Below, piece after piece: positions 3,280 to 61,785 of a DNA stretch of 64,000 nt. Position numbers and translations under genes: made by a program. Where the stretch lies: assembly GCA_963816185.1 (NCBI GenBank), contig CAWFJJ010000001.1, forward strand, positions 632,464 through 696,463, written 5' to 3'. Source of the DNA: Thermoanaerobaculia bacterium (lineage in GTDB: Bacteria; Acidobacteriota; Thermoanaerobaculia; UBA5066). The notes under the pieces are model-generated. The model had not been told where the DNA came from. It was given only the letters and a program-made list of their open reading frames with translations, and ran no database searches. Each line of letters starts with the position of its first letter. Positions within the stretch are counted from its first letter, which is position 1.

Positions 3280-3710
3280 AAAGAAGAGAAGAAGAGCTTA
3301 GAAGGAAATATTCAGAGAGAACGAAGAGGAAGAGGAACGGCAATGGAACAGATCTTCGACATCAGGATTCAGAACGTGCCCGGGATTTTGGCGCGCGTGG
3401 AGTCGATCTTCAGGCGGCAGCGCGCGCCCATTCGGGGGTTTTGCTTAGAAGGGGAAGAAATGACTGGCGCGGCGCATCTCACGATCACTGCCATGGCGAA
3501 CGGCGACGTCGCCAATCTTCTGAGAAAGCAACTGATGCGGCTCATGGACGTGGAAGCGGTCGCCGATACCGGCGCCAGCGCGGCCCGCGCCTTCGCTCCG
3601 CCCGAATCCTCTTTCACCTTCAAAGAAAAAACTGCTTAACCCGAAAAAAGCCGCAAGCAGGAACCGATCGGACGTCCCAACAGCCCTATTCACCATCGAA
3701 GAAGAAACAG
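3280..3710. repeat. dispersed TTCTWAGAA-core motif cluster (5 copies) at ilvB-ilvN-ilvC
   Basis: Core centres 3299(f), 3446(f, TTGCTTAGAAGGGGAAGA), 3522(f), 3623(r), 3699(r). Confidence 0.7.
3343..3639 (+). CDS. ilvN: short ACT-domain acetolactate synthase small subunit (IlvN/IlvM-like)
   Basis: 98 aa, N.PGILARV…F.R and KQL.RL.DV; sits between ilvB and ilvC; divergent and overlaid with the dispersed motif. Confidence 0.75.
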
Positions 3711-3758
3711 CGTTACCCAAGCCGAGAAGACAACACGAAGCAGAACGGGAGCAGAACG

Positions 3759-4772
3759 ATGGCGACGATCTGGTACGACAAGGACGCGGACATCTCCCGC
3801 CTCAAGGGGCGGACGGTGGCGATCATCGGGTATGGCAGCCAGGGGCACGCGCACGCGCTGAACCTCAGGGACAGCGGCATCTCCGTGGTGGTCGGGCTGC
3901 ACGCGACGTCGAAGTCCGCCGCGAAGGCGAAGGCGGACGGCCTGACCGTGCTGAGCGTCGACGAGGCCGCGAAGCGCGCGGACATCATCATGATCCTGAC
4001 GCCCGACACGGGCCAGAAGAACCTCTACGACTCGTCCATCATGCCGTACCTCTCGGCCGGCAAGACGCTCATGTTCGCGCACGGCTTCAACATCCGGTTC
4101 GGACAGATCGTGCCGCCGGCCGACGTGGACGTGTCGATGGTCGCCCCGAAGGCGCCGGGCCACCGCGTGCGCGAGCTGTTCCGGGAAGGCGAGGGCACGC
4201 CCGCGCTGCTCGCGGTCGAGCAGAACGCGAGCGGCCACGCCCGCGAGGACGCGCTGGCCTACGCGAAGGCGCTCGGCGCGACGCGCGCGGGAGTGCTCGA
4301 GACGACGTTTGCCGAGGAAACCGAGACGGACCTTTTCGGCGAGCAGGCGGTCCTCTGCGGCGGCACGTCGGCGCTCGTGAAGGCTGGTTTCCAGACGCTC
4401 GTCGAGGCGGGCTACCAGCCGGAGGTCGCGTACTTCGAGTGCCTGCACGAGCTGAAGCTCATCGTGGACCTCATGTACCGCGGCGGCCTGAACTACATGC
4501 GCTATTCGATCAGCGACACGGCCGAGCACGGCGACTACACGGCCGGCCCGCGCATCGTGACCGAGGCGACGCGCGGCGAGATGAAGAAGATCCTCCAGGA
4601 GATCCAGGACGGCGTCTATGCCGAGAAGTGGATCGACGAGAACCGGAAAGGACGCCCCGAGTTCGAGGCGACCCGCGAAAAGGAAAAGAACCAGCTCCTC
4701 GAGAAGGTCGGCCAGGAGCTGCGCGCGAAGATGCCGTTCCTGAACCCGGTCGTCGTGGACAAGGTGGCCTGA
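3759..4772 (+). CDS. ilvC: ketol-acid reductoisomerase
   Basis: [64 protein letters not shown]. Confidence 0.98.
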
Positions 4773-4773
4773 A

Positions 4774-6009
4774 ATGCGAATTACGATCTTCGACACGACG
4801 CTCCGCGACGGCGAGCAGGCGCCGGGCTTCTCGATGCGCGAGGCCGAGAAAGTGCGCCTCGCCCGGAAGCTCGACGCCCTCGGCGTGGACGTGATGGAGG
4901 CGGGCTTCCCGATCGCCTCCGAGGACGACTTCAACTCCGTCCGGGCCGTCGCGCGCGAGGTCCGGCGCCCCGTCATCGCGGCGCTCGCGCGCTCCGTGGA
5001 CGCCGACATCGACCGCGCCGTGGCGGCCCTGGAAGGCGCCGCGCGCCCCCGCATCCACACGTTCCTCGCGACGTCCGACCTCCACCTCGAGCACAAGCTC
5101 CGGATGTCTCGGGCTGAATGTCTCGACGGCGCCGCGGCCGCCGTGCGAAGGGCGCGCCGGCACGTGGACGACGTGGAGTTCTCGGCCGAGGACGCGACGC
5201 GCAGCGACCTCGATTTTCTCGTCACGGTCATCGAGGCGGTCGTCGAGGCCGGCGCGACCACGGTCAACCTTCCCGACACGGTCGGCTACGCGACCCCGGA
5301 CGAGATCGTCCGCTTCTTCAAAGCGGTGCGCGCGCGGGTGAAGGGCTCTGACCGCGTCGTCTTCTCGGCGCACTGCCACAACGACCTCGGCCTCGCGGTG
5401 GCCAACAGCCTCGCGGCCCTCGAAGGCGGCTGCCGGCAGATCGAGTGCACCGTGAACGGCATCGGCGAGCGCGCGGGGAACGCCTCTCTCGAGGAGATCG
5501 TCATGGCGCTCCGCGTGCGGCCCGACAGGCTGCCGTTCACGACCGGCATCGCCACGCCGGAGCTCTTCTCGTCGAGCCAGCTCCTCGCGGAGATCACGGG
5601 CGAGAGCGTCCAGTCGAACAAGGCCATTGTCGGCCGCAACGCCTTCGCGCACGAAGCCGGCATCCACCAGGACGGCATCCTCAAGGACCGAAGGACGTAC
5701 GAGATCATGCGGCCCGAGGACGTCGGCGTTCCCGAGACGACGCTCGTTCTGGGCAAGCATTCCGGCCGCCACGCGCTGAAGAACCGCTGCGCCGCCCTCC
5801 GGATCGAGCCCACGCGCCTCGAGCTGGACGAGCTCTACAAACGGATGATCGCTCTCGCGGACCGGAAGAAAATCGTGGGCGACAACGACCTCTTCGACCT
5901 CTGGAGCGCGATGAAACGCGCTGCGGCACGGGCGAAGGCGCCCGCGGCGCGCGTCTTCCGCGAGGAGACCGCTCCCGCCGAAGAAGCGGGCTACGGGCAC
6001 GGGGTCTGA
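4774..6009 (+). CDS. leuA: 2-isopropylmalate synthase, short form without C-terminal regulatory domain
   Basis: [43 protein letters not shown]; 411 aa. Confidence 0.93.
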
Positions 6010-6010
6010 C

Positions 6011-7096
6011 GTGGGGCGACGCGCGCGCATCGCGGTCCTCCCCGGGGACGGAATCGGCCCCGAGGTGACGGCTGCGGCGTTGACGGTGCTCAAGGCCGTC
6101 GCGGCGCGCTTCTCTCACGACTTCGTCGTGTCGGAGTGGCCGATCGGCGCGATCGCGATGCGCACGAAAGGCCTTCCGCTTCCAGAGGAGACTCTCGCGG
6201 CGTGCCGCGATGCCGATGCGGTGCTCCTGGGCGCCGTCGGCGATCCCGCGTACGACCTCGCGCCGCGTGACAAACGCCCGGAAGCCGGGCTTCTCGCGAT
6301 CCGCAAGGCGCTCGGCCTCTACGCGAACGTCCGTCCGGCCCGCGTATTCAGGGGCCTCGAAGACGCGGGCCCGCTCAAGCCGGAGATCGCCCGGGGTCTC
6401 GATCTCGTCGTCGTGCGCGAGCTGACGGGCGGGCTCTATTTCGGGACCCCGCGCGCGCTGGATCTCACCGCGGGAACGGCCGTGAACACCCTGCCGTACT
6501 CGCGGCCCGAGGTGGAGCGGATCGCCGAGGTGGCGTTCCGTCTCGCGTCGGGCCGAAGGAAGAAAGTCACGTCGGTCGACAAGTCCAACGTCCTCGAGAC
6601 CTCGCAGCTCTGGCGCGCGGTGGTGACCGAGGTCGGCAATCGGCATCCGGACGTCGTCCTCGAGCACCAGCTCGTCGACTCGTGCGCGATGAACCTCGTC
6701 CTCACCCCGTCGGCCTTCGATGTCGTCGTCACGGAGAATCTCTTCGGCGACATCCTGTCCGACGAGGTGGGCGCGCTCGTGGGCTCGCTCGGGCTCCTGC
6801 CCTCGGCGAGCCTCGGTGACGGCCCGGGCCTCTTCGAGCCCGTGCACGGCTCGGCGCCGGCGCTCGCGGGACGCGACGTCGCGAATCCGATCGGGGCGAT
6901 CGCGACGGCCGCGATGCTCCTCGAGGACGGGCTCGGCTTAAAGGAAGAAGCCGCGGCGGTCCATCGGGCGATCGAGACGGTTCTGGAAAAGGGCGCGCGC
7001 ACGGCGGATCTCGCGCCGCGCGGCACGCGGGTGCTCGGCACGCGCGAGATGGCGCGGGCGGTGGCAGACGCGATCCCGGCTCATGTGGCGGTCTGA
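6011..7096 (+). CDS. leuB: 3-isopropylmalate dehydrogenase
   Basis: LPGDGIGPEV, VRELTGGLYFG, NLFGDILSDE, LFEPVHGSAP. Confidence 0.96.
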   Translation: MGRRARIAVLPGDGIGPEVTAAALTVLKAVAARFSHDFVVSEWPIGAIAMRTKGLPLPEETLAACRDADAVLLGAVGDPAYDLAPRDKRPEAGLLAIRKALGLYANVRPARVFRGLEDAGPLKPEIARGLDLVVVRELTGGLYFGTPRALDLTAGTAVNTLPYSRPEVERIAEVAFRLASGRRKKVTSVDKSNVLETSQLWRAVVTEVGNRHPDVVLEHQLVDSCAMNLVLTPSAFDVVVTENLFGDILSDEVGALVGSLGLLPSASLGDGPGLFEPVHGSAPALAGRDVANPIGAIATAAMLLEDGLGLKEEAAAVHRAIETVLEKGARTADLAPRGTRVLGTREMARAVADAIPAHVAV

Positions 7097-7108
7097 ACGG
7101 AGGAAGTC

Positions 7109-8095: not shown

Positions 8096-8167
8096 GCCCT
8101 CCTTGTTGTTGCAGCGACTCGCTCCTGCTCGCCGCGGGTTCTTATGTTAGCTGCGAGGGCTCCGCAC

Positions 8168-17017: not shown

Positions 17018-17530
17018 CTACGCGAGGATCGCCCCTTCGTGCGCGAGCAGCCAACGCTTCCGCGAAATCCCTCCGCCGTAGCCCGCGAGCTTGCCGTCTG
17101 ACGCGATGACGCGATGGCACGGCACGACGACCGAGACGGGATTTCGCGCGTTCGCACCCGCGACCGCGCGGACGGCGGAAGGCTTGCCGACGGCGCGCGC
17201 GAGCTGCGCGTACGACCAGGTCGTGCCAGGGGGAATGCGACGGAGGGCTTTCCAAACCTCTTCCTGAAAAGCAGTGCCATCCGTGTCGACGAGGACGTCG
17301 GCGAGTGCCTCGAGGTCGCCAGCGAAATATCGCCGCAAGGCGTCGGCTGCACCTCCGCCTTTCGGATTTTCTTCGAAGGAGATTTTCCCGAACCTCCGTA
17401 TGAGGTCCGCTTCCATCCCTTTCCAGCGATCTTTGTAGACGAGTCCGACGAGGGCGGTTCCGCGGCTCACCAGAACGACGGTGCCCGCGGGCGTGTCGAT
17501 TTCCGTGATGGAAAGCCGGGTGGGGTTCAT
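17018..17530 (-). CDS. ogt: methylated-DNA--protein-cysteine methyltransferase
   Basis: GTAFQ.EVW.AL..IP.G, RAVAGANARNP, active-site PCHRV. Confidence 0.95.
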   Translation of the reverse strand: MNPTRLSITEIDTPAGTVVLVSRGTALVGLVYKDRWKGMEADLIRRFGKISFEENPKGGGAADALRRYFAGDLEALADVLVDTDGTAFQEEVWKALRRIPPGTTWSYAQLARAVGKPSAVRAVAGANARNPVSVVVPCHRVIASDGKLAGYGGGISRKRWLLAHEGAILA

Positions 17531-22065: not shown

Positions 22066-23221
22066 TCACGAAATCAACATCGCGTCGCCGTAGCTGAAGA
22101 AGCGATATCCCTTCGCGACCGCCTCCCGGTAGGCGGCCAGAACTCGCTCGCGTCCCGCGAACGCGGACACGAGCATGAGCAGCGTCGAGCGGGGCAGGTG
22201 GAAGTTCGTCAGGAGCGCGTCCACGATGTGAAACGTCGCGCCCGGGCACGAGGAAGAGGTCCGTCTCGAACGCGCCTGCGGCGACCGTGCCGCCGTGCGT
22301 GCGAGCCGACGCCTCGAGCGTGCGCACGGACGTCGTGCCGACCGCGACGACGCGACGCCCGTCGCGTTTCGCATGGTTCACGCGTTCGGCGGTTTCCCCG
22401 GGGATTTCCGTCCGCTCGAGATCCATCCGGTGCTCTTCGACGAGATCGACTTTTACCGGCTTGAACGTGCCGAGGCCCACGTGCAGGGTCACGCGTGCGA
22501 GGTGCACTCCCTGCGCTTCGATCTTCGCGAGCAGGTCGGGAGTGAAGTGCAGCCCGGCCGTCGGCGCCGCGATCGCACCGGGGCGATCGGCGAACACGGT
22601 CTGGTAGTCGATCGCATCCTGGGCGTCCGCGACGCCGAGCGGGCGCCGGATGTAGGGTGGCAGGGGAGCGGACCCGAGGGAGGGGAGATCGTCGAGGAGA
22701 AAAGACGTTTTGCTCCCGTGCTTCGTGAAACGGAGAACGTAGAGGCCGGCTTCGGAGCGAGTCGTTTCGCCGGTTTTCTTAGAAGGTGAATGGGGCATGG
22801 GCTGGGCCCGAGCCGCGCTCGCGAGCGCCACGGCCTCCCACCCCCCTTCGAAGAAAAAGCGCCGTCCCGGTTTGACGCGCCGTCCCGGTTTTGCGAGACA
22901 CCGCCAGAGCTCCTCTTCTTTCTTTTCCCTTTTCGAAGCAAAATCCGAAATCCCCGGTTCCTCCGACATCTTCGAAACCAGCAGGAATTCCGTCCTTCGC
23001 CCCTTCTCGTCCGTTCCGAAAATCCGCGCCGGGATGACTTTCGTGTCGTTCAGGACAAGGACGTCACCCGCGTGGAGAAGCGACGGCAGATCGGCGACCA
23101 CGCGATGGGCGAACGCGCCCGTCCGGCGGTCGAGCGTCATGAGGCGTGCGGTGCCGCGCGGGGCGGGCCGCTGGGCGATGGATTCGGACGGCAGCACGAA
23201 ATCGAAATCCGCGACGTCCAT
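22066..23221 (-). CDS. queA: SAM:tRNA ribosyltransferase-isomerase; frameshift near 22241; motif-associated loop insertions
   Basis: DFDF.LP…[69 protein letters not shown]. Confidence 0.95.
22771..22950. repeat. motif cluster inside queA
   Basis: TTTTCTTAGAAGGTGAA (centre 22780), reverse copies centred at 22851 and 22936. Confidence 0.8.
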
Positions 23222-23259: not shown

Positions 23260-24875
23260 ATGCGGTCGAGGGCCGGAGTCGTCGTGGGGCTCTATGCCCT
23301 TCTGGCGCTTCTCACCGTCCCGGTTTTTCCGCACTTTCTCTCGCCGAACGAGTTCACGCGCTGGGCGCTCGCCGCGTCGTTCGTCGAGCACGGCACGCCG
23401 GAGATCTCCTCCGTTCTGCCGCTCCTCGGGCCGGCGTTCGAGGATGTCTCGGAGAAAGGCGGGCGCGTCTACTCGAACAAGGCACCCGGCGCGACGCTCG
23501 TCGCCCTGCCGGGGTACCTTCTCGCGCGCCCGTTCTCGGGAGCGCCCTCGCCTTCTTCGATGCGACCGGTTCTGTGGGCGATGCGGCTCTTCGGTGCGAC
23601 GGCGCCCGCAGTGCTGCTCGCGCTCGTCCTGTTCCACGCGGCCGTGAGGTCCGGGGCTTCTCCCTCGCGCGCCGCGAGTGCGGCATTCGCTCTCCTTTTC
23701 GCGACGCCGCTCTTCACATACGGCCTGCTTCTCTTTTCGCACGCCCTCGCCGCGGCGTGCCTCTTCGGAGCGTGGGTCGCGCTCTTCCATCCGGGCGATC
23801 CTTCCCGCGTGTTTCGCCGCGATGTGCTTGCGGGCGCGCTCCTCGGTCTCGCGGTCCTCTCGGAGTACCCGGCGGCCGTGCCGGCGGCCGTGCTCGCCCT
23901 TTGCGCGGTCATCCCCGCGCCCCGGCGCGCCCTCGCCCTCGCCGCGGGGGGTGCTCCGTTCGCGGCCCTTCTCGGCGCGTACGATCTGGCCTGCTTCGGG
24001 GGAGTCTTCGAGCTTTCTTCCGCCCACGAGCTCTCGTCGAGCTTCCGGTCGCTCGCCTCGGCGGGTCTCTTCGGCATCGCCCTGCCGTCTCCGGAAATCC
24101 TCCTTCGCCTGCTCGCGGACCCGTCGAAAGGCCTCCTGGTCTTCTCGCCGTTTCTCCTCCTGTGGCCCGGAGCGCTTCTCTCGTCCCGCGCCGCGTTGCC
24201 TTTCGGGGGCCGCGTCGCGCTCGTGCTCGCTCCTCTCTCGCTTCTCCTCCTCTATGCGGGCTACCCGAACTGGCACGGCGGGTTCAGCGTCGGGCCGCGG
24301 TATCTCGTCGCGGCTCTGCCGTTCCTCGTCTTCCCGTTCGCATTCGGGAAGGGGGGATTCCTCGAGAGCGCGCTCGTCGGTGCTTCGACGCTGGCCGTTT
24401 GCGCGACGACGCTCGCGTTCCCGTTCGTCCCTCCCGGGTTCGCGTTGCCGTGGGGCTCATTCGCGGCGTACTTCTTCGAGAGGGGCTCGACGCTGCCGAA
24501 CGTGTTGCAGATCGTTGCGCCCTCGGCGGCGCGCTTCGTCCTGCCGGCAATCGTGGCGGTCGCGGCGTACTTATCCTTGGAAGGGAAGAGAGAAGAGGAT
24601 CCGAAAGCCGAAGGGGAAGGGTGGGAATCGCTTTTTTCCTTGGAGCGGCGGCCTGCGCATTCCTGGGAATTCTCCTTTCTAAGCAAGTTATTCTTTCTTC
24701 TCCTTCCCTTCTTCTCCAGCGTGCGTACGTCGCCGATGTTTACTTCGAGCAGCGGGGCACGCTCGATGAGGAGATCGCCCGGACCGGATCCCGGCAGCCG
24801 CGTCTCCTCGCCCGGCGCGAGCGGGAACTTTCGCTTCCCCCGCCGCCCTGGCCTTTTCCGCCGGCATCACGCTGA
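23260..24875 (+). CDS. multi-TM membrane protein (GT-C / glycosyltransferase-like); frameshift near 24610
   Basis: Many TM segments, [27 protein letters not shown]; C-terminal hydrophobic part continues in another frame to TGA 24875. Confidence 0.7.
24570..24715. repeat. degenerate motif pair in the membrane-protein gene
   Basis: TCCTTGGAAGGGAAGAGAG (centre 24578) and CTCCTTTCTAAGCAAG (centre 24681). Confidence 0.55.
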
Positions 24876-33039: not shown

Positions 33040-33172
33040 GAGAACGAGGAGAGAGGAAGAGATTTCTTAGAAGGTGAAGATCGGAAGCCGGCTCGCGCGC
33101 GCGGCGCTGCCTCGCGCGAGAACCGCCCCCTCAAGCCCTTTTCTAAGAGAATCTTCTTCTTCTTTCTTCTCT
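33040..33172. repeat. convergent motif pair, 77 bp
   Basis: GAGGAAGAGATTTCTTAGAAGGTGAAGA … CCCTTTTCTAAGAGAATCTTCTTC. Confidence 0.85.
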
Positions 33173-36121: not shown

Positions 36122-36901
36122 CTAGCGCGCGGGTGTCGTCAATCCTGCGGGCACGGCCTGGTTGTCCATGCGCTGCGCGATGAGGTCGGTGCGGCGCTCC
36201 CAGGCCGCCGGATGCGCGCGGTACCATGCCGGACCCGGGATCAGGGCGGCGAGATGCGCCGCGTCCCGGGTCGAGAGGCGGCTCGCGTTCACGCCGAAGA
36301 GCGCGCGTGACGCCGCCTCGCAGCCATAGGTCGTCTCGCCGAACTCGATCGCCGAAAGATAGATCTCGAGGATCCGCGCCTTCGGCACGAGGAGGTCGAG
36401 GGTGGCGGCGAGAACCGCCTCGCGCCCCTTCCGCCACCAGGTGCGGTCGCCCGTGAGCCACAGGTTCTTCACGAGCTGCTGCGTGATCGTCGACGCGCCG
36501 TGAAGGCGTTTTCTGCGGCTCCTCGCGTGCGCCTCGTTCCAGCGGTGGGCCGAAGAGACCGCATCCCAATCGATCCCGTGGTGCTCGAAGAAACGGGAAT
36601 CTTCCGCGGTGAGGACCGCCTGCACGAGGGCGGGCGAGACCTGAGAGAGGCGAACGGGGCGCCGGTCGATCGTGTCGCTCTTGCCAAGGGCGCGCAGGTG
36701 CGCCCTTCGGGCCTCGATGAACGCGGTGGTCTTCGGGTCGCGCCAGCGGAGGAGAATGATCTGCGGAAGAGGGATGAAGACGAGGAAAAGGAAGATGAAG
36801 AGAAGAAGAAGAGAGAGATTTCTTAGAAGGTGAAGAGAAGAAACCCCGCGGCCCCCGTGGCGCGCTTCGGCGGATTGCGACGCGCCGGCCCCGTCTTTCA
36901 T
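36122..36901 (-). CDS. mtgA: monofunctional peptidoglycan transglycosylase
   Basis: AEDSRFFEHHGIDW, GASTITQQLVKNL, RKGRE, K.RILEIYL. Confidence 0.92.
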   Translation of the reverse strand: MKDGAGASQSAEARHGGRGVSSLHLLRNLSLLLLFIFLFLVFIPLPQIILLRWRDPKTTAFIEARRAHLRALGKSDTIDRRPVRLSQVSPALVQAVLTAEDSRFFEHHGIDWDAVSSAHRWNEAHARSRRKRLHGASTITQQLVKNLWLTGDRTWWRKGREAVLAATLDLLVPKARILEIYLSAIEFGETTYGCEAASRALFGVNASRLSTRDAAHLAALIPGPAWYRAHPAAWERRTDLIAQRMDNQAVPAGLTTPAR

Positions 36902-36912
36902 TCGAAGAAAAA
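36790..36912. repeat. convergent motif pair at the mtgA 5' end, 81 bp
   Basis: GAAGAGAGAGATTTCTTAGAAGGTGAAGAGAAG … TTTCATTCGAAGAAAA. Confidence 0.85.
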
Positions 36913-36956
36913 GCGCCGTTGCCGTTGCCCCGGCGCAACCGGCATCGGGCGGGTCC

Positions 36957-41406: not shown

Positions 41407-43361
41407 CAGTCCCTCGCGACGTGCCGCTTGCTGCGCTGCTCGGCGATCTTCTTCTTCTGCTCGTCGAGGTCGGAACGCTCGATGGCCGAGAGGAGCTGCT
41501 CGGCCTTGTCGCGCGTCATCTTCGCGTTCTGCTCGAACTCCCTCTCCTGCTGTTGCTTCTTCTGGGCGTCGCTTCCGGCCTGCTGCTTGTCCTTCTTGTC
41601 CCCCTTGTCTTTCTCGTCCTTCTGGTCCTTCTGATCCTTCTGTCCTTGCTGCTGCTGTTTCTGTTTCTGCTTCTGCTTCTCTTGCTCGGCGCGGCGTACG
41701 CACAGCTCGTAGTTCCAGGCGGCGTCCGCATCTCCCGGGCGGCGCTTCAGCGCCTCACGAAAGGCGACGGCTGCGGGCTCGTACTGCTTCTCGCGGTAGA
41801 GAGTCTGGCCCGTGTTGAACGCAGCGTCGGCCGCGACGGCGCCGCGCCCTTCCTTGCGCGCCCTCTCGAGCGACGCGAGAGCCTCGGCGGGCTTCCCGGC
41901 GCGCGACTGCGCGGTCCCGAGGTTGTAGCTGCCGGTCGGATCCTTCGAATCGATCTCGGTTTCCCGCAGGAAATGCGCGATCGCCTCGTCCGGCTTCTTC
42001 TCGTCCAGCGCTCTTCTGGCCCTTCTTCGCCTCGGAGCGGGGAGAAGAGAGGAATTTGCTTAGAAAGGGGAGAGGGGCGGTTGCGTCCGGGGACGCCTGA
42101 GCATCTGGCAGCGCAGGTGCGGCGGTGCCGCTCGAAGAGGCCGACGAGGAGGGCTGCGGCGCGGTTGCGCCGGCGCGGCCGGTGCCGGCTGCTGCGCCCG
42201 GGCGCGCGCGGCGACGGGAAGCATAAGGAGCAGCACAGCCGCCACCCCGAGCTCCGCGGCACCCTTCTTCCCCTTTCTAAGCAATCTTCTCTTAACCACA
42301 TTTTCTAGAAAACCCGCTGCTTCGGCACGTCTCGAAGCGCTCCTCCCTCGTCCGACTCCGAGCAATAGAAGCGCCAGCGCTCCCACCGCGACGCCGAGCG
42401 GAATCTGGAAGCGCTCCTCGAGCGACGTGACGAGGACCTCGGAAAGCGGGTGGCGCGCGCCGAGGTCGATCTGCCGGGCGACGCCCTCGAGATCGGTGCG
42501 GCCCGGGGAGACGACGGTGAACGAGCCTCCCGTCTCGGCCGCGAGCCGGCGGAGGAGCTCCGGGTCGGCCCTGGAGAGCACCGGCTGGCCGCTCGCGTCG
42601 GTCTTGAAACCGCTCGTGCGCCCCGCCGCGTCGACCTCCGGCACCGGGGCTCCGGCCCCGCCGAGGGATCCCACGAAAACGGAGTGGACGATGATCCCTT
42701 CGGCCTTCGCGCGACCGATCGCGGCATCGACCCCGCCCTCGAGGTCCTCGCCGTCCGAGAAGACGACGACGTTCCGGCCGCCCGCCGATCCGGCCGGGAA
42801 CAGGTCGGCCGCCGCCGCGAGACCCGAGGCGAGCGAGGTGCCGGGCCTGGCGCCCATGCCGGGCTCCATCGCGTCGAGGAAGAGTCCGACCGCCGAAGCG
42901 TCGAGAGTGAGCGGCACGAGGGCCTGGGCCTCTCCTTCGCAAGAGATCAATGCGGCGCGATCGCTTCCGAGGCGCGACAGGAGAGACTGTGCGGCCTGCC
43001 GTGCGAGGACGAAGCGCGAGGGCGAGACGTCCGTTGCGCGCATCGAGGCAGAGGTATCGAGGACGAAGACGACGTCGGCGCCCCGCCGTTGCGCGGTCTC
43101 GGCCGTATTTCCCCAGCGCGGCCGCGCGAGCGCAGCGGCGAGACCGAGCGCGACGAGAAGCGTGAGTACGGCGGCTGCAGCGGGGAAGCCGCTCGCGGGA
43201 GCGAGACGGGCCTTGGCCGCGAGCGCGGGAGAGACGAGCGCCGCGCTTCGGGCGGAGCGCCGCCGGACGGAGAAGATCAGGGCGCCGGCCGCAGCGCCCG
43301 CGAGGAGGAGTCCGGGAAGGAGCATGACCGGCTCGGCAAAAAGCGTCGTCCACGTACTCAT
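41403..43361 (-). CDS. batB: BatB-like VWA protein fused to BatC-like TPR and Gln/Lys-rich tail; frameshift(s) near 42010-42150
   Basis: ALARPRWG, LDTSASM.A.DV.PSR, FSDGED; downstream frame YNLG…FNTG…AAWNYEL…KDQ repeats…RDW. Confidence 0.82.
42040..42314. repeat. motif pair in batB with a perfect 16-bp inverted repeat
   Basis: TTGCTTAGAAAGGGGA 42056-42071 / TCCCCTTTCTAAGCAA 42269-42284. Confidence 0.85.
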
Positions 43362-44413: not shown

Positions 44414-45550
44414 GAGGCGCGCTCCTTCGAAGCGGCGACGCGGGCGGCCTCGGCTTTTTGCCGCGCCTCGACGTCGTGGAGGACGACGCGGGCTCTGACG
44501 AGCGCCTCCCGCGCGTCCTCGCGCGTTGCCGCACCTTTTCCGAACTTGACGCGGTCGGCGGAGGCGAGAAGGTCGGGGAATGCGGCTTCACGCGGGAACT
44601 CGAAACCTCTCTCGCGCAGGCGCCTCACGGTCTCGAACGTCGTCCATTCGAGGACCGGGTCGCCCGTCACGCGCTCGAGGAAGCGCTTCACCGCGAACGT
44701 GAGCTCCGAATAGAACGCGCGTGCATCGTCGTCGAGGTTCTCCGCAGCGTCCGCGAGCCGTGCGAGCGCGAGGCGCAGCTCCTCGCCGGGCTCGATCGCG
44801 GGCTCCGAAGCCTCCACACCGCCAGACTTGCGGCGCCTTCGCGAGACGAGCCAGGCGACGAGCGCCGCGAGGAGAGCCGCTCCGGCCCCAAGAGCGATCC
44901 AGTACTTCGCGGGCCACGCGGGGATACGAACCGGCTTGTCCGCCTTCGGCGCGAGCTGCTCGGGTTTCTGGCCCGGAGGGAGGCGGGAGGCGACCTTCAG
45001 CTCCAGATCCGGCGGACGGACGTCGACGGGGGAAGACGAAGAAGGAGATTCTTTGAATGAGTAGTGGGGACCCGGCACACGCACGGTCCCTGCTTGAAAT
45101 GGGAACAGCGCCACGGCTTGCGTCCATTCGAAGAAATCTCCCGTGGCGCTCTTCGTAACGGTGGGCGGCGAGGGGTTCTCGAACTCGAGGATCGTGCCGC
45201 CCGGAGGCCGCGCGCCTTCCGCGGGCGCGGGCGTCACGAGCGCATCGAGCGTCAGCGAAGAGCCGGCGGGAATGCGCGCGGAATACGTCACGACGACGCG
45301 GTCGCCGAGGGCGACGGACGCACGGTCGACGGTCGCGGAGAACTGGACAGAGGGAAGAGAGGACCAGAAGAGGAAGAGGAAGATTTCTTAGAAGGGGAAG
45401 AGGGGGAGGCCCGGCGGCGGCATCGGCGGGCTAATGGCGCTGGCGGCGCCGTGGGCGGGGTCTCACCTTCGAAGAAAATCCACCGCCGAGAAGTCCACTG
45501 GAAACGCCAAGCGCAACGAAGAGAGAGGGAGCAAGAAGGATTCTCTTCAT
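44410..45550 (-). CDS. Bat-operon hypothetical membrane protein; 5' part frameshifted in the motif region
   Basis: ATG 45550 overlaps DUF58 stop and begins a signal peptide; main frame SATVDRA.V.LGD…TM…FYSEL…LE.TT.E…ADRVKFG. Confidence 0.72.
45032..45480. repeat. two convergent motif pairs (78 bp and 83 bp)
   Basis: Centres 45053/45131 and 45389/45472 (GAAGATTTCTTAGAAGGGGAAGAGG … CACCTTCGAAGAAAATC). Confidence 0.8.
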
Positions 45551-48021: not shown

Positions 48022-48034
48022 AGGGTTCGGACTT

Positions 48035-48147
48035 GGGATTTTCTTAGAAGGGGAAGAGGGCGATGGCCGAGCAACGCGGAAGCGCCCGTCCGAAAAGAAG
48101 GCGCTGCCCCCGCGCCTTCTAAGAAATCTCTGTCTTCCTTCTCTTTC
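48035..48147. repeat. intergenic convergent motif pair, 76 bp
   Basis: Perfect 12-bp IR TTTCTTAGAAGG 48040-48051 / CCTTCTAAGAAA 48115-48126 between convergent genes. Confidence 0.88.
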
Positions 48148-53190: not shown

Positions 53191-54259
53191 GTGCGAATAG
53201 TTTTTTTCGGATCGCCGTCCTTTGCTCTCCCGGCGCTCGATGCGCTCCTAGCGGCGGGCCATCGTGTTCCGCTCGTCGTTTCCCAGCCCGGGAAACCTGT
53301 CGGACGAAAGGGCGAGGTGACGGATCCGCCTGTCGCCGCGCAGGCGAAGTCGCTGGGAATCCACGTCTTCCAGCCCGCGACGCTGAAGGACGACGCTGCT
53401 GTCGCGCGCCTCGCCGAGGTGCGCGCCGACGCATTCGTCGTCGTCGCGTACGGAAAGATCCTCGCGCAGAGGGTGCTGGACCTGCCCCGGCTCGGCTGCC
53501 TGAACGTGCACGGCTCGCTCCTCCCGCGCTGGCGCGGGGCCTCGCCCGTGCAGGCGGCGATCCTCGCCGGGGACGCGGTCACGGGCGTATCGATCATGAA
53601 GATGGACGCCGGGATGGACACGGGCCCGGTGTACGCGACGCGGGAGACGCGGATCGGGGAGGAAGAGACGGTTGAAGAGCTGGGCGCGCGGCTGGCGCAA
53701 ATGGGGGCTGATGCGCTCGTCGATACGTTGTATTTCTTAGAAGGTGAAGAGAAGTAGCAGGGGCGCACGGCCCACGCCGGCGCCTCCGCACCGCCGGGCT
53801 TCTGGTGAATGCCCGCGCGGCATGCCGCCGGCGCCGGGAGGGACGGCCCCTCACGCGCCTTCTCAGAAAATCTTCCTTCCCCCGGTCCCCCAGGACGACT
53901 CTCTCGCCACCTATTGCCCGAAGATCTCGCGCGAGGACGGCCGTGTGGACTGGTCCCGGCCCGCGGCCGAGCTTGTTCGAAGAAGCCGTGCCTTCACCCC
54001 ATGGCCCGGCCTCTTCACCCTTCGAAGAAATACGCGCTTGAAGCTCTCGGGCCTCTCGCCGGTTTCGCGAGATGTTTCCGGCGCGAGAGGGAGCAAAGAA
54101 TCCCCCGGGGTTCTCCTCGAAGCGGGTCCGCGCGTCGTCGTCGCGTGCGGGGAAGGCGCGGTCGCGGTCGGCGTGCTGCAGGCAGAAGGCCGCCGCGCGC
54201 TCCCGGCGGCCGAGTTCGTGCGCGGCGAGCGCGTCGCGCCCGGCGAGCGCTGGGGCTGA
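53191..54259 (+). CDS. fmt: methionyl-tRNA formyltransferase, interrupted by a ~130-bp motif-bounded segment with a stop and frame change
   Basis: MRIVFFGSP.FA, VVAYG.IL, NVHGSLLPRWRG.SP, GMDTGP; C-terminal PQD…ATY.PKI..EDG..DW…RAF.PWP in the +1 frame. Confidence 0.92.
53731..54031. repeat. motif copies inside fmt
   Basis: ATTTCTTAGAAGGTGAAGAGAAG 53732-53754; CCTTCTCAGAAAAT 53858-53871; CTCTTCACCCTTCGAAGAAAT 54011-54031. Confidence 0.85.
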
Positions 54260-55961: not shown

Positions 55962-56000
55962 GCGCCCGCGCGTCGCGCGCGCCCGTATCATGAGTCGTTC

Positions 56001-56708
56001 ATGATCCCGCTGCGCGACACGATCCGGACGCGGACGGTTCCCTTCGTCACCCGACTCCTCGTCGTCGCGAACGTCGCGGCTTTCGTGCTGGAGTTCCTCC
56101 AGGGCGAGAGCCTCGACGCGTTTCTCGAGACGTTCGCTTTCATCCCGCTCCGGTTCTTTCACCCCGAGCTCGCCGGCTGGACGTTCTCCGCCTCCGTCGT
56201 GACGATCTTCACCGCGATGTTCCTGCACGGTGGCCTTCTGCACCTCCTCGGAAACATGCTCTTCCTCTGGATCTTCGGCGACAACGTCGAGGACGCGCTC
56301 GGGCACTTCCGGTTTCTCTTTTTCTACCTCGCGGCGGGCGTGTGCGCGACCCTTCTGCAGGCGTTCCTCTCGCCATCGTCGGCGGTCCCGAATCTGGGTG
56401 CATCGGGCGCGATCGCAGGCGTCCTCGGGGCGTACTTCGTGTATTACCCGCGCGCCCGGATCGTAACCATCGTCCCGCTCTTCATTCTCTTTCCCGTCGT
56501 CGAGATTCCGGCGGGCCTCTATCTCCTCGGCTGGTTCGCCCTGCAGTTCTGGATGGGATCGGAGCAGCTCACGCGCGCCGGCCGGGCCGCCGCGTCGCAG
56601 GGAGGCGTCGCGTTCTGGGCGCACGTCGGCGGATTCGTCTTCGGCGTCGCGTGGGCGCTGATCTTCCGCCCTTCCCGAGGGCCTCAGACGGCCTACCGGA
56701 TCTCGTGA
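56001..56708 (+). CDS. rhomboid intramembrane serine protease
   Basis: MFLHGG..HL.GNM.FL..FG.NVED, GASGAIAG, AHVGGF. Confidence 0.95.
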   Translation: MIPLRDTIRTRTVPFVTRLLVVANVAAFVLEFLQGESLDAFLETFAFIPLRFFHPELAGWTFSASVVTIFTAMFLHGGLLHLLGNMLFLWIFGDNVEDALGHFRFLFFYLAAGVCATLLQAFLSPSSAVPNLGASGAIAGVLGAYFVYYPRARIVTIVPLFILFPVVEIPAGLYLLGWFALQFWMGSEQLTRAGRAAASQGGVAFWAHVGGFVFGVAWALIFRPSRGPQTAYRIS

Positions 56709-58102
56709 AGGTCCGAGGCGGGACCGTTCTCGCGTGGAGCCTCTATGAGCTCGGGGCGACGAGCTTCGCGATGAACATGCTCTCGTTCTACTTTCCGCTC
56801 GACATCGCGACGCGCGTTGCGAGGGGGAACGAGAGGTTCTCGGTCGTTTTCAGTTGTTCGATGCTCGTGGTTGCGATCGCGGCTCCCCTCCTGGGCACTC
56901 TTGCCGATCGCCGTGGAAAGCGGCGACTCCTGATCCCGTTCGTCCTCGGCGGCATCGCCCTCACGGCGCTCGTCGGTGTGACGGGCCCCGTGTGGCGCGT
57001 CCTCGCATTCTTCGCGTTCGCGAACATCGCGTTCCAGTGCGCTTACGTCTTCTACAACGCGCTGCTGTCCGACGTCTCGGACTCTTCGAACTCCGGCCGC
57101 GTGTCGGGCTACGGCGTCGCCGCGGGTTATGTGGGCTCACTCCTCGGAATGGTCATTGCCGTGCCCTTCGTTTCGGGAGCGGCGCGAGCCAAGCTGCCTC
57201 CCTTTCTCGGTTCCGTCGTCGATGCCCTTTCCGTCGCGGCGCTTTCTTCGAATGTGAATGACGCCTGGGTGCGCCGGAACGCCTACCTGCCCACGGCTCT
57301 GCTCTGGCTCGCCGCGGCCGTCCCGCTGCTTTTCTTCGCGCGCCTGCCGAAATTGAAGAAGGATATTTCAGCGAATGAGAAAGCGGGCACGGGCAGCGGT
57401 GGCGCAGCAGGCGCCGCGCAGGCCGTCCACAACGCAAAATTGCCTTCTAAGAAATCTCTCTCTTCTTCGTCTCCGATTCGAGACGTCCTCCAGACGATCC
57501 GATCTTTGCCGCAGACGCCCTCTCTCCTCTGGTTTCTCGTCGCGAACTTCCTCTACATCGACGTGATCCACACGATTCAAGTGCAGATGGGGACTTATTC
57601 CCGCTTCGCGGTGGGTCTGGACGATGGGGCGGTCCTGAGGCTTCTGCTCACGGCAACGGCCGTGGCGGTCGTGGGTGGGCTCCTGTACGGTTTCCTCTGC
57701 CAGCGCGTCACGATCCGCACGGCGACGCTCGTGGCGCTCGGGAACTGGGTCGTCGTGTTCGTCCTCGCGTTCTGCATCCGCGATCCGAAGACGTTTCTAC
57801 TCGTCGGCGTCCTCGCCGGCATCGGCCTCGGCGGCATCAAGGTGACCGGCAGGCTCGGGCTGATCGCGCTCGTCCCGAAAGAGCGCACGACGGAGTTCTT
57901 CGGCTTCTTCACGCTGGCCGGCGAAGCCGCGTCGGTCCTGGGGCCGTTTCTCTGGGCGGCCACCCTCACGCTCTTCCCCGACAGGAGCCCGGCCGGCTAC
58001 CGCGCGGGCATCTCCGTACTCTTCGTCGTCCTCGTCTTCGCGGTCGGTGCTTTTCTCAGAGTGCGGTTCCCGAAGGCCGAACCCGCGCGTTATCCCTCGT
58101 GA
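56705..58102 (+). CDS. MFS transporter (UMF1/ATG22-like)
   Basis: AWSLYE, P.LG.LAD..G, FYNALL, G.VSG.G…GY.G, EFFGF; central loop carries a motif-bounded segment. Confidence 0.88.
   Translation: MKVRGGTVLAWSLYELGATSFAMNMLSFYFPLDIATRVARGNERFSVVFSCSMLVVAIAAPLLGTLADRRGKRRLLIPFVLGGIALTALVGVTGPVWRVLAFFAFANIAFQCAYVFYNALLSDVSDSSNSGRVSGYGVAAGYVGSLLGMVIAVPFVSGAARAKLPPFLGSVVDALSVAALSSNVNDAWVRRNAYLPTALLWLAAAVPLLFFARLPKLKKDISANEKAGTGSGGAAGAAQAVHNAKLPSKKSLSSSSPIRDVLQTIRSLPQTPSLLWFLVANFLYIDVIHTIQVQMGTYSRFAVGLDDGAVLRLLLTATAVAVVGGLLYGFLCQRVTIRTATLVALGNWVVVFVLAFCIRDPKTFLLVGVLAGIGLGGIKVTGRLGLIALVPKERTTEFFGFFTLAGEAASVLGPFLWAATLTLFPDRSPAGYRAGISVLFVVLVFAVGAFLRVRFPKAEPARYPS
57243..57470. repeat. motif copies inside the MFS transporter gene
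   Basis: Centres 57248(f), 57371(f, degenerate), 57449(r, CCTTCTAAGAAATCTCTCTCTTCTTC). Confidence 0.78.
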
Positions 58103-59483
58103 AGCGCGCCGTCGTCGGGCTCATCCGCTTCCTCGTCGATCTCTTCTATCGGCGTGTCGAGGTGTCGGGTCTCGAGAACGTGCCGGGCCAGGGGCCGGTC
58201 CTCTTCGTCGCGAATCACTTCAACGGCCTCGTCGACCCGATGCTCGTCCTCCGCGTCGTCGAACGCGGGGTCGTCTTCGTCGCGAAGTCCACGCTCTGGC
58301 GGATTCCGATCCTGCGGCCGCTCCTCGACCTCCTCGGTTGTGTGCCGGTCGTGAGGAAAGGGGAGGAGGACCGGGAGATTTCTTCGAAGGGTGAAGAGAG
58401 GAACCGCGGCGCGTTCGAAAAGCTGGCGGCTGTTCTCGAGAGAGACGGCGCGATCCTGATCTTCCCCGAGGGGCGGTCGCACTCCGATCCACGGCTTTCG
58501 GAGATCCGGACGGGCGCCGCGCGTGCTCTTCTCCTTTCTAAGAAATCCCCGGTCGTCCTTCCTGTCGGCCTCTGGTTCACGAAGAAGGAGGAATTCCGGT
58601 CCGACGTGCTCGTCCGCATCGGTCCGCCGGTCGCGCCCCCGGCCGCTTCGACCGTCGAGGCCTGGACGGCCGCGATCGAGAAGGCGCTCCTCGACGTCAC
58701 GTTGAATGCGGACGACTGGGAGGACCACGAGGTCGTCGCGGCGGTTGATGCGCTTTATGGGACGAGGATTCCGGAGGAGGGAAAGACGGGGGGGAGAACC
58801 GGGGATTTCTTAGAAAGTGAAGAGAGGAATTCGTCCTCGCAGTTGGCGCGCTCGTTCCGGAATCGGCAACTCCTTCTCGCGGCTCGCGACGTGCTGAAGC
58901 GTGTAGAACCCGGCGCGGTGGCATCTGTCGCGCGGCGCGCCCGCGCCCTCGACCACCTTCTAAGAAAAATCGGTCTCTCTTCCGGTGCCCTCGACGATCC
59001 TCCGCCTGCAAATGAGGTCATTGCCTCGGAACTCTCAAAGCTCTTCTCTTCATCCTTCTCGGCTTTCCGGTCGCTGTCCTCGGCGTGGCCGCGTGGTGGG
59101 TGCCGTACCGCTTGTGCGGGGTGATCGCGAACCGCGTGCGTGGAGTCTCGGAGCAACGCGACCAGATTGCACTTTACAAGCTTCTTGCGGGAGCTCTCCT
59201 CTTTCCCCTCTTCCTTGCGCTCGAGGCCACCGCCGTCTGGAGTTTCGCAGGCGCAGGTTGGGCCGCCCTGGCCTTCGCCCTTCTTCCATTCGCAGGAATC
59301 TCTTCTCTTCTCTTCTTCGAGTACACGTCATGGCGCGAGAGTCAGGCGCGGGAGCTCCTCGCGCTCGCGTTCATGCCCGGCGGGATCGCGCGTCTGCGCG
59401 CCCGGCGCGACGCTCTCGTCGCCGAATGCGACCGGCTGGCAGGGGTCTACCGGAGTCGGACCGGCGATAATCGGGTTCCGTGA
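58099..59483 (+). CDS. PlsC-like acyltransferase with C-terminal TM region; frameshift near 59035
   Basis: NHFNGLVDP, FVAKS.L, IFPEG.SH, TGAAR. Confidence 0.85.
58360..58975. repeat. four alternating motif copies inside the PlsC-like gene
   Basis: Centres 58384(f), 58540(r), 58811(f), 58962(r); perfect 20-bp IR 58534-58553 / 58798-58817. Confidence 0.88.
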
Positions 59484-60505
59484 CGGACGAGAAGGAGGCG
59501 CCGGTCCCGCCGGCCACGCGATTCGAGATCGCGGCGTGGATCCTCGCGGGGGCCGCCTTCGTCTTCGTCTTCGAGCGGCATCTCGTGTCGGCGCTCCTGG
59601 CCGGGCTTCTCGTGCAGCTCATCCTCGACACGATCGCCAGGCGGCTGCACGGCCCGCGGCTTTCTCACGGCGTCGAAAAAGCGATCTCGGTAGCGGTCCT
59701 GGGACTCGTTGCCGCCTCGGTCACGGTCGGCATCGTGATCCTCGTCCTCGGCCTCCTGCGCGGGCGTCTCGGAGATCTCCCCGCGCTCTTCGAGGCGATG
59801 GCCGACGCGCTCGAGAAGATCCATGCGCGGCTCGGCGCGGCGGGCTTCCTCGTTCCCGCCCTCGACGCCGAGCACCTCCGTCTCCTGGTGACGGAGCGGC
59901 TGAGGCTTCACGCGAGTGCGCTCGGGGAGGCGGGCGGCGAGATAGGCCGCGTTCTCGTGCACGCGCTGTTGGGAATCCTGATCTCGCTCCTCGTCTTCTT
60001 CCGCGGCGAGAGCCCGTCGCGACGTCCTTTCGCCGCAGCCCTCCTCGATCGTGTCCGGCGATTCACGCAGGCGTTCGAGACGATCGTCCGGGCGCAGGCG
60101 GAGATCTCGGCCATCAACACGTCGTTGACCGCGATCTATCTTTTCTTCGTGCTCCCTCTCCTGGGGGCGCATCTTCCGTTCTCGGGGACGGTTCTCATCG
60201 TGACGTTCCTCGCGGGAATGATCCCGGTGGCCGGAAATCTCGTTTCGAACACGGTCATCGTCGTCCTCGCGCTCTCGGTTTCGCCGTTGCTCGGGGCGGT
60301 CTCGCTTGCCTTCCTCGTGGTCGTTCACAAGCTGGAGTACGTGCTGAACGCGAAGATCGTGGGCCGTCGAATCGGAGCCGCCGCCTGGGAGATGCTGCTC
60401 GCGATCCTCGTGTTCGAGGTGGCTTGGGGCGTTCGCGGCGTCGTTCTCGCGCCCGCGATCTACGCGTGGGTGAAGGGAGAGCTCAAGGACCGCGGTCTGG
60501 TCTGA
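59480..60505 (+). CDS. AI-2E family transporter
   Basis: Multi-TM; AQ..IS..NT.LT, IPVAGNL, HKLEY.LN.KIVG, AWE.L.A. Confidence 0.88.
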   Translation: MTDEKEAPVPPATRFEIAAWILAGAAFVFVFERHLVSALLAGLLVQLILDTIARRLHGPRLSHGVEKAISVAVLGLVAASVTVGIVILVLGLLRGRLGDLPALFEAMADALEKIHARLGAAGFLVPALDAEHLRLLVTERLRLHASALGEAGGEIGRVLVHALLGILISLLVFFRGESPSRRPFAAALLDRVRRFTQAFETIVRAQAEISAINTSLTAIYLFFVLPLLGAHLPFSGTVLIVTFLAGMIPVAGNLVSNTVIVVLALSVSPLLGAVSLAFLVVVHKLEYVLNAKIVGRRIGAAAWEMLLAILVFEVAWGVRGVVLAPAIYAWVKGELKDRGLV

Positions 60506-60530
60506 GCATCCTGGTGTAGCCTCACCCGTC

Positions 60531-61691
60531 GTGACGAATGTAACCGCGCCCGCCGTCCCGGTTCCGCTCCTCGACTTGAAGAAACAGTACGCGACGATCC
60601 GCGAGGAGATCCTGCGTGCGACGGTCGACGTTTACGAGAGCCAGTACTTCATCCTGGGCCCTCGCGTCGAGGCGTTCGAGAAGGCGGTCGCTTCCTACGT
60701 CGGGGTGAGGCACGCGATCGGCATGTCTTCGGGCACCGACTCGCAGCTCGCCGTCATGATGGCGCTCGGTGTCGGGCCGGGCGACGACGTCGTGACGTCT
60801 CCTTATTCCTTCTTCTCGACGGCCGGCGCCGTCGCGCGCCTCGGCGCGCGGGCAGTCTTCGTCGACATCGAGCCGGCGACGTTCAACCTCGACCCCTCGA
60901 AGCTGGAGAAAGCGATCAGCCCGAAGGCGAAGCTCATCCAGCCCGTCCACCTTTACGGCCAGTGCGCCGACATGGATCCGATCCGGGAGGTCGCGAAGCG
61001 GAAGGGGATCCCGGTGCTCGAGGATGCCTGCCAATCGCTCGGGGCGGCGTACAAGGGTGTCAAGGCGGGAGCGCTCGGCGAGTTCGGAGCCTTCTCGTTC
61101 TTCCCCTCCAAGAATCTGGGCGGGTTCGGCGACGGCGGCATGGTGACAACGCAGAACGACGCGTACGCAACACGCCTTCGCGCCTTGCGCATGCACGGCG
61201 AGACCTCGCGCTATCACCACAAGCTCGTGGGCGGGAACTTTCGGCTCGACGCGCTTCAGGCCGCGATCCTTCACGTGAAGCTGCCGCACCTCGACGGCTG
61301 GGCGCGCGCGCGGCGTGCGAATGCGGCCGAGATCGAAAGGCTTTACGTCGAATCGGGCGGACGCAGATACGAGGAGGGCGGCCTGAAGTTTCCGCGCCAG
61401 GCGGCGGGCCGCGAGCACGTCTTCAACCAGTTCGTCGTGCGCGTCGGAAAGGGCCGGCGCGACTTGTTGAAGAAGCTTCTCGACGAGCGGCAGATCGGAA
61501 ACGCGATCTACTATCCGGTGCCGCTGCACCTGCAGGAGTGTTTCGCCTCTCTCGGAGGCCGCCCGGGCGACTTCCCGGAGGCGGAGAAGGCCGCCGCCGA
61601 AACGCTCGCGCTTCCGGTTTTCCCGGAACTCACGGCCGAGCAGAAGAGTACGCTCGCGATGACCCTCGCATCCTTCTCGCGCGAGACATGA
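60531..61691 (+). CDS. DegT/DnrJ/EryC1/StrS-family aminotransferase
   Basis: VHLYGQ, EDACQ, SFFPSKNLGGFGDGG, NFRLDALQAA, YYPVPLH. Confidence 0.95.
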   Translation: MTNVTAPAVPVPLLDLKKQYATIREEILRATVDVYESQYFILGPRVEAFEKAVASYVGVRHAIGMSSGTDSQLAVMMALGVGPGDDVVTSPYSFFSTAGAVARLGARAVFVDIEPATFNLDPSKLEKAISPKAKLIQPVHLYGQCADMDPIREVAKRKGIPVLEDACQSLGAAYKGVKAGALGEFGAFSFFPSKNLGGFGDGGMVTTQNDAYATRLRALRMHGETSRYHHKLVGGNFRLDALQAAILHVKLPHLDGWARARRANAAEIERLYVESGGRRYEEGGLKFPRQAAGREHVFNQFVVRVGKGRRDLLKKLLDERQIGNAIYYPVPLHLQECFASLGGRPGDFPEAEKAAAETLALPVFPELTAEQKSTLAMTLASFSRET

Positions 61692-61699
61692 GACCGCGG

Positions 61700-61785
61700 C
61701 GAATCTGCTGAGAAAGAAGCGGCCCCTGACGAAAGACAAGCGGACCGCTGCTGGGCCGCCACTTCCCTCACCTTCGAAGAAACCC
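61700..61785. repeat. degenerate motif pair upstream of the groESL promoter, 67 bp
   Basis: ATCTGCTGAGAAAG (centre 61710) … CCCTCACCTTCGAAGAAA (centre 61777). Confidence 0.55.

Follow-up and report, generated by a model that had tools for sequence, protein, structure and literature searches.

Uptake signal sequences (USS) of Pasteurellaceae, DNA uptake sequences (DUS) of Neisseriaceae and the HIP1 motif of cyanobacteria are lineage-specific words with a core of about 9 nt and flanking preferences, present in hundreds of copies that act singly. Repetitive extragenic palindromic sequences (REP), bacterial interspersed mosaic elements (BIME) and REPINs are high-copy inverted doublets, extragenic hairpins that host proteins are believed to bind and that persist over long times. 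For copies lying in frame within genes, the closest precedent is that of the Rickettsia palindromic elements (RPEs), described in PMC10969869 as short palindromic elements of one genus, in frame in unrelated and sometimes essential genes and translated, whose copies share full-length conserved sequence and peptide. Here we describe a family of paired elements found in a 64,000-nt stretch of a Thermoanaerobaculia genome (the window, G000:C1:632464-696463). Each consists of two inward-facing arms, asymmetric half-sites built on the core TTCTWAGAA, that flank an interior of its own. Like RPEs, they are conserved in a genus and lie in frame in genes (fmt, a major facilitator superfamily (MFS) gene and an RNase R-like gene). 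They differ in that only the arms of 27-45 nt are shared, 219 of 267 interiors being unrelated, over a total length of about 65-300 nt; the arms are moreover read in two frames and both orientations, with no conserved peptide, and some replace native codons with nothing inserted. The paired motif matches no described repeat family. With a probability of about 0.4, we read the pairs as old foldback-type insertions in which both arms have been retained because a sequence-specific factor that acts on DNA would recognise them.

The source genome, G000, is metagenome-assembled (5.09 Mb in 30 contigs, 68% GC, completeness 94.9%). The exact core occurs 11 times in the window (starts at 22776, 33064, 36820, 45385, 48041, 48117, 53734, 57445, 58536, 58807 and 58958) where 0.05 copies are expected, a count that none of 100 dinucleotide shuffles reaches, and 337 times across the genome; a 21-mer allowed up to 3 mismatches returns 7 matches in the window against 0 expected. 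Alignment of all exact copies reveals a half-site that is asymmetric and spans about 27-45 nt. In it a purine tract leads into GATTTCTTAGAAGGKGAAGAG, the order being some 20-25 nt of purine-rich sequence, then (G)AT-TTCTTAGAA-GG(K)GAAGAG(G), then GC-rich DNA without consensus. By a weight matrix trained on the exact cores of the genome, 907 half-sites score at least 14 bits and 813 at least 16 bits, compared with about 22 and 11 in a third-order Markov simulation. Within the window 36 reach at least 12 bits, 29 at least 14 and 21 at least 20, at about 15 loci. Variant cores add further copies genome-wide: TTCTTCGAA (169), TTCTTTGAA (48) and TGCTTAGAA (37). The original prediction, made from the letters of the window, had listed the 11 exact cores, some 35 copies in all and a contribution from variant cores, and each of these counts agrees with ours. 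The motif is not an assembly artefact, since a DNA contig of an independent public run (X1) spans the G000-specific element at 48041/48117 unchanged and the motif is found in assemblies produced by several methods.

Half-sites average about 1 per 6 kb and are clumped (variance 12.1 vs mean 3.4 per 20 kb, 26% of bins empty). Their number per 10 kb varies about five-fold among large contigs (C29 0.51, C25 1.05, C24 2.39, C28 2.67) and is zero on several contigs of 10-57 kb. Chromosomal domains, acquired regions or contamination introduced at binning (estimated at 3.4%) could each account for this unevenness. No genome of the genus is larger than G000.

The motif had been taken for a dispersed single sequence, a view that does not survive inspection of neighbouring copies. 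Among the 648 half-sites of at least 20 bits, 82% have an inward-facing partner (at least 8 bits, 40-300 nt away), whereas outward-facing partners in the same distance range are found for 3% and tandem partners for 13%. Likewise, 269 of 303 neighbouring convergent pairs are at most 300 nt apart, as against 15 of 294 divergent pairs. The spacing between arms begins abruptly near 64-68 nt, is most often 74-78 and extends to 300, with no significant helical periodicity (best R 0.178; 95th percentile of the null maximum, 0.181). The sharp floor may be no more than a consequence of how unstable long inverted repeats are when they stand close together; that the geometry is strictly convergent suggests two bound arms working together. 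A spacing peak at 93 nt was discarded as an artefact of Ser/Thr kinase paralogs, whose apparent right arm is the native ..IY(G/S)FEE.. sequence. These paralogs (G000 C24:602899-633522 and other loci) carry the left arm within a conserved ..VLP.(D/E)F(L/F)EGEER..RF.REA.. segment.

The interiors are 71% GC and self-complementary to the same degree as random genomic segments (z -0.13 vs -0.09). That the spacers are not homologous had been noted already, and it holds for the 219 singletons among the 267 interiors. As 229 of the 267 have no second match in the genome, capture of genomic DNA was rejected as their source.

Nor do the two arms of a pair depend on each other. In no segment are they more alike than the arms of permuted pairs (z -0.0 to 1.6), core variants pair up randomly (54 observed vs 51.3 expected; 16 vs 14.9), and the arm-to-arm duplex energy is -30.1 kcal/mol, compared with -29.7 kcal/mol for random genomic 45-mers. 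Each arm therefore fits the consensus independently, without selection for arm pairing, and a hairpin or cruciform element was rejected on these results together with the unstructured interiors. The same data bear on an element acting in RNA, in which, whichever strand is transcribed, the purine-rich 5′ arm would pair with the pyrimidine-rich 3′ arm and close a large loop affecting mRNA processing, stability or translation. The consensus arms are indeed complementary, a convergent pair is identical from either strand, which makes its orientation-independence in genes compatible with such a role, and the left arm contains a Shine-Dalgarno-like AGAAGGTGA, putatively matching the 16S rRNA 3′ end. 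We nonetheless consider an RNA element improbable: compensatory covariation is absent, with mismatching core variants as frequent as expected, the duplex is no better than random, solo half-sites in genes show no strand preference (108 on the same strand, 92 on the opposite one), a search of Rfam 15 gave 0 matches at gathering score in the window, and a long stem within essential coding sequence would be costly.

These features also separate the pairs from known systems with inverted ends. REP/REPIN doublets and their REP-associated tyrosine transposases (RAYTs) share with them the inverted doublets of high-copy short repeats, but here 61% of half-sites are in predicted genes, a half-site forms no hairpin, covariation between arms is absent, the two arms stand at long and variable distances, and Y1_Tnp/RAYT (PF01797) has 0 matches in G000 at its 94.9% completeness. 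The attC sites of integron cassette arrays have the core GTTRRRY / RYYYAAC and are read as folded hairpins. Their resemblance to the pairs is in working only (conserved inverted ends, a free variable centre, variable length), because the core here is CTTAGAA/TTCTAAG and the arms show no covariation.

Genes were called with a simple codon-statistics caller of our own (4338 genes, 87% coding). By these calls coding sequence holds 495 of 815 half-sites, in both orientations equally, 178 of the 337 exact cores and 7 of the 11 in the window, one of them in a very weak open reading frame (ORF). The claim that most copies lie inside genes is only roughly right: 87% of the genome is coding, and pairs are about five-fold denser between genes (101 in 0.65 Mb, vs 129 in 4.44 Mb of coding sequence). 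Intergenic pairs are densest between co-directional genes (0.19 per kb), followed by convergent (0.12) and divergent ones (0.09). The 129 of 267 pairs that lie wholly within a gene are evenly distributed along gene length.

Inside genes the motif runs against codon usage. TTA, which it uses, makes up 0.2% and CTA 0.5% of Leu codons, and AGA 2.6% of Arg codons. Same-strand exact cores fall in frame 0 (45) and frame 1 (40), with 10 in frame 2, where the TAG of the core is in frame. A codon-preserving shuffle had been proposed as a check, and three synonymous-codon shuffles give 41-61 hits of at least 16 bits in coding sequence (about one ninth of the 456 real ones) and 0-3 exact cores, vs 164. 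The rare codons, different frames and both orientations of the original prediction are all confirmed, and the evidence is in line with its proposal of selection on the nucleic acid rather than on the protein. In-gene interiors have codon log-odds of 0.257 per codon, vs 0.636 in controls (79% below the control 25th percentile), and raised GC at codon positions 1 and 2; most of them look like translated filler.

The family is restricted in lineage. A 14-mer is present in all 18 other genomes of the genus that were searched; of 12 genomes from two further families of the order, the unpublished G019 among them, none has it. An 18-mer is shared by all 26 genus genomes examined and by 4 of 8 from the sister genus g10 (1-5 copies), and it occurs in 0 of 26 across eight further genera. 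The consensus is the same in all genus genomes and in g10, where copies are also convergent pairs, and the pair in an RNase R-like gene is co-located in G000 and G058 (g10). The comparison with relatives, another proposed check, also favours constraint at the level of position. Along a 31-kb stretch syntenic with five relatives (73-92% identity) most half-sites are in the same place, and at most orthologous sites 4-6 of the 6 genomes have retained the arm. At least 14 bits are retained in 53 of 74 orthologous comparisons (a hand count from the synteny table, excluding genomes whose fetched stretch misses the site), vs 15-27% under neutral decay simulated at an identity of 0.69-0.75, as seen at third codon positions and intergenic sites.

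Differences between species are also seen, some of them of the size of a unit. The 48041/48117 pair occurs only in G000 among 27 genus loci compared; in most relatives with a readable junction the two genes nearly abut, and in G006 and G012 elements with unrelated interiors stand at the junction. In the MFS gene of G038 a unit of about 150 nt (tract, arm, interior, arm, tract) appears as a presence/absence difference.

The case of fmt (window 53191-54259) documents a copy within an essential gene. Arm-like sequence encoding FLEGEE or close variants is present in the domain linker of all 26 aligned genus orthologs, of which 12 are long (interior plus right arm, of varying length) and 14 short. 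The interiors align collinearly across the 12 species and the whole gene is open and in frame in 8 of the 12 long forms, from which we conclude that they are translated, not removed. In G000 itself the N-terminal domain stops at TAG 53755 and the C-terminal domain resumes in the +1 frame. A related strain in public run X2 has 2 additional nt that would restore the frame, and the C-terminus of the acyltransferase ORF (58099-59483) in G000 similarly departs from that of its relatives; on these grounds we regard a fault of the assembly or of the strain as the likelier cause of the fmt frameshift. Either indels from assembly or true pseudogenes would explain the frame defects of both ORFs. For the fmt element, bypass during translation and splicing were rejected, given the in-frame relatives and the 2 nt of the X2 strain.

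The acyltransferase gene presents a different picture. The interior of its 58380/58536 pair is native coding sequence (72-89% identity), and an alignment to 11 homologs, drawn from other genera and from another family (the unpublished G019 locus left out), shows its arms in place of variable loops. One arm site exceeds its outgroup counterparts by 3-5 residues; the other is shorter.

Both genes are relevant to a host signal of no mobile origin, in which half-sites would have been written into the chromosome by mutation and selection or molecular drive, as are DNA uptake sequences, Chi and HIP1, and would serve a genome-wide process (uptake, repair, nucleoid organisation) that requires convergent pairs. 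It would account for acyltransferase arms that replace loops without added length around a native interior, for the FLEGEE-type arm of all 26 aligned fmt orthologs with or without an interior, for a genus-specific motif with one consensus in every species, and for equal orientations in genes with in-gene hits far above synonymous shuffles. ComEC is present in G000, which is uninformative because this protein is widespread. The pairs further resemble USS, DUS and HIP1 in a core of about 9 nt kept at orthologous positions, in both orientations and against codon usage, but differ from them in that 82% of strong sites are paired, in the clumping at about 1 per 6 kb and in unit-sized insertions. 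Uptake sequences explain neither the obligatory convergent pairing nor the floor of about 65 nt, the GC-skew orientation bias of Chi or KOPS (FtsK-orienting polar sequences) is not seen here (skew itself is weak in G000), most in-gene interiors resemble non-native filler, and by our own arithmetic the 20-40 bits per site far exceed the approximately 13.5 bits needed for some 900 sites. We regard a host signal of this kind as unlikely. The analogies with uptake sequences and REP in the original prediction fail on defining features, namely pairing and clumping for the former and in-gene location, lack of a RAYT and lack of a hairpin for the latter.

Alternatively, inverted arms around a short segment could be sites of recombination, leading either to programmed inversion (invertons, shufflon) or to loss of the interior by excision. 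In their conserved ends and unique interiors the pairs recall the internal eliminated sequences of ciliates, and the spacing floor of about 65-80 nt is of the order reported for synapsis in site-specific recombination. The ciliate sequences, though, are excised, whereas the interiors here are translated and collinear, and the two orientations of a segment that characterise invertible DNA were not found: the 13 interior matches (E<0.001) between G000 and five relatives are all collinear, none flipped. Public runs were compared at the level of contigs, at which rare within-population events may escape notice. The fmt interiors are collinear in 12 species and mostly in frame, some interiors are essential domain sequence, and helical periodicity is lacking. 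Of all the explanations weighed here this one appears the least probable.

Mobility was approached through candidate enzymes. None of the three families searched (Y1_Tnp, RVT_1 and DDE_3; other transposase families were not searched) tracks the motif. RVT_1 is present in only 4 of 29 genus genomes, which led us to reject writing by a retron or reverse transcriptase. DDE_3 is sporadic (4 of 27 genomes, G000 included) and no motif lies within 1.5 kb of the G000 copy, so that IS630-type mobilisation was rejected as well. Both genes are observations in their own right: a reverse-transcriptase gene at G000:C30:283778-284398 (open frame of 587 aa) and an intact IS630-type DDE_3 transposase gene at G000:C24:515174-515608 (357 aa), each sporadic in the genus and unlinked to the motif. 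Insertion into a palindromic target with TA duplication was likewise discarded, since the predicted empty site TTCTTAAGAA occurs 0 times. Logan contigs of public runs, covering at most 31% of sampled words, gave no evidence of excision, inversion or transcription; joints in public-run contigs are variants of relatives or motif-to-motif graph links.

A still-active non-autonomous miniature inverted-repeat transposable element (MITE), with an arm conservation that would mostly be ascertainment bias and gene conversion among copies, would fit the terminal inverted arms, the lineage-specific copies (48041 in G000, others in G006 and G012), the higher density between genes and the coexistence of another, conventional repeat family whose end is likewise of the TTCT type. 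As in MITEs such as Correia, RUP and ERIC (PMC10969869), the ends are inverted repeats, coding capacity is lacking and copies are found now and then within genes. The pairs depart from MITEs in having no shared interior, no duplication seen at lineage-specific sites, no cognate insertion sequence found, and copies that are mostly ancient and positionally fixed. With none of the tested transposases following the motif, long-range pairs holding only housekeeping genes, the empty target absent, 229 of 267 interiors unmatched in the genome and orthologous arms kept in most genomes at most sites, an active MITE seems to us even less likely than a host signal.

The reading that we prefer, old foldback-type insertions with both arms retained, takes the window to hold about 15 members of a lineage-specific family with some 300-400 paired elements per genome. 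Each element would comprise two inward-facing half-sites around at least about 65 nt of freely evolving, GC-rich filler. MITE-like foldback insertions, now largely immobile, would have settled at sites able to bear them, either intergenic or within the loops and linkers of proteins, where they are read in frame as low-complexity peptides. A conserved trans-acting factor, either a host protein or a domesticated protein of the element, would read each arm singly as DNA and so hold the consensus. The insertional origin is suggested by unit-sized presence/absence, the intergenic excess and the filler-like interiors; the factor by unrelated interiors, conservation confined to the arms, one consensus in two genera and the lack of covariation. 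Our data show the paired architecture, its excess over chance, constraint on the DNA, conserved positions, restriction to the lineage and independence of the arms; the insertional origin, the factor and any cellular role, e.g. in local DNA organisation or insulation, are inferred from them. The original prediction had offered a chromosome-architecture signal or the remnant of a mobile micro-element. These are not separated by our data, and the preferred reading combines both; each needs amending because the unit is a convergent pair of asymmetric half-sites.

Several results weigh against this reading. Column identity of intergenic arms (0.742) is not above that of other alignable intergenic columns (0.749) and does not set them apart, so that the conservation claim rests on motif-score retention and is somewhat weakened. 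The 219 unrelated interiors out of 267 fit a transposon family only if nearly all copies predate neutral saturation. The acyltransferase pair flanks a native conserved domain and its arms swap loops without adding length, and the left arm of the Ser/Thr kinase family likewise replaces native sequence; a single insertion cannot explain either. No target-site duplication is visible at the G000, G006 and G012 insertions of the 48041 junction. No autonomous element was found, the long-range pairs examined enclosing housekeeping genes only (an ABC transporter, Lgt, signal peptidase II, a peptidase, an oxidoreductase). Finally, G000 is a metagenome-assembled genome with an estimated contamination of 3.4% and some frameshifts, and the gene calls come from a simple caller.

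A bolder version, which we put forward tentatively and with some doubt, is that the pairs are a new chromosomal punctuation: about 400 positions per genome, each with two inward-facing sites for a putative lineage-specific DNA-binding factor. That factor, possibly a domesticated transposase, may mark coding and non-coding DNA alike and may predate the split of the two genera. By analogy, the system would correspond, in bacteria, to convergent-site architectural systems or to transposon-end networks adopted by the host. If the arms are read by a protein, they would constitute a natural DNA signal that overrides codon usage and protein sequence at hundreds of loci, the essential fmt included. 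Such a signal would also obey a strict geometry (convergent, at least about 65 nt) that is absent from described bacterial repeats and uptake signals. It would offer a way to study how the chromosome is organised, or how transposons are domesticated, in a large soil lineage that is uncultured, and would serve as a marker for DNA of this genus. Should the pairs be only decayed mobile DNA, they would still illustrate how proteins absorb foldback insertions as in-frame linkers; Rickettsia offers a parallel, but here only the arms are conserved. A literature search found no paper on the motif, 11-mer matches being limited to unrelated papers (supplements lay outside the search), and none that pairs Thermoanaerobaculia with an inverted repeat; judged by title and abstract, none of the papers on Acidobacteria MITEs concerns the motif.

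The members of the family in the window are collected in Table 1.

Table 1. Paired and solo half-sites in the window (window coordinates; core positions with weight-matrix scores in bits in brackets).
Positions	Element	Strand	Left core	Right core	Spacing (nt)	Remarks
3434..3635	convergent pair		3442 (28.1)	3619 (27.3)	177	weaker extra arms at 3295 (+), 3311 (+), 3518 (+), 3695 (-)
17361..17387	solo half-site, TTCTTCGAA core	+	17369 (20.5)			
22768..22948	pair with two right arms		22776 (30.8)	22847 (16.1); 22932 (16.0)	71 (to 22847)	just upstream of ATG at 22797
24566..24693	weak pair		24574 (12.1)	24677 (18.8)	103	
33056..33157	intergenic pair		33064	33141	77	full pair also in G007 and G038; right arm only in G011 and G014
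36812..36917	pair		36820 (38.9)	36901 (12.3)	81	left arm kept in 6/6 genomes; interior length varies between species, interior deleted in G007
42049..42291	pair, TGCTTAGAA cores		42057	42275	218	both arms kept in 6/6 genomes; interior diverged with indels
45041..45143	weaker pair in coding region		45049 (19.5)	45127 (17.4)	78	
45377..45484	intergenic pair		45385 (38.7)	45468 (19.9)	83	preceded by a long GAR purine tract
48033..48133	pair between two convergent genes		48041	48117	76	one gene encodes a thioredoxin
53726..54037	pair in fmt linker		53734	53860	126	further right arm at 54021; left arm encodes FLEGEE
57359..57461	pair in loop of MFS transporter gene		57367 (12.9)	57445 (31.0)		left core degenerate
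58372..58552	pair inside Pfam acyltransferase domain		58380	58536	156	
58799..58974	pair further along acyltransferase ORF		58807	58958	151	arms encode DFLESEE and HLLRKIG
61763..61789	solo right-type half-site	-		61773 (21.0)		

The second repeat family of the genome, mentioned above for its TTCT-type end, is a conventional one of about 125 nt, with 75-87% identity between copies and no Rfam match. It is represented by G000:C28:403211-403337 (L157, about 1710-1840) and 34 other aligned copies genome-wide. Of its two internal hairpins, one is located around GCGGCGGCTGC..GCAGCCGCCG and the other, which is long, around GTCAAGGG..CCCTTGAC. The repeat begins on the left with TTCTNATATGCGG, similar to the first part of the arm core, and its copies often lie inside or beside arm pairs.

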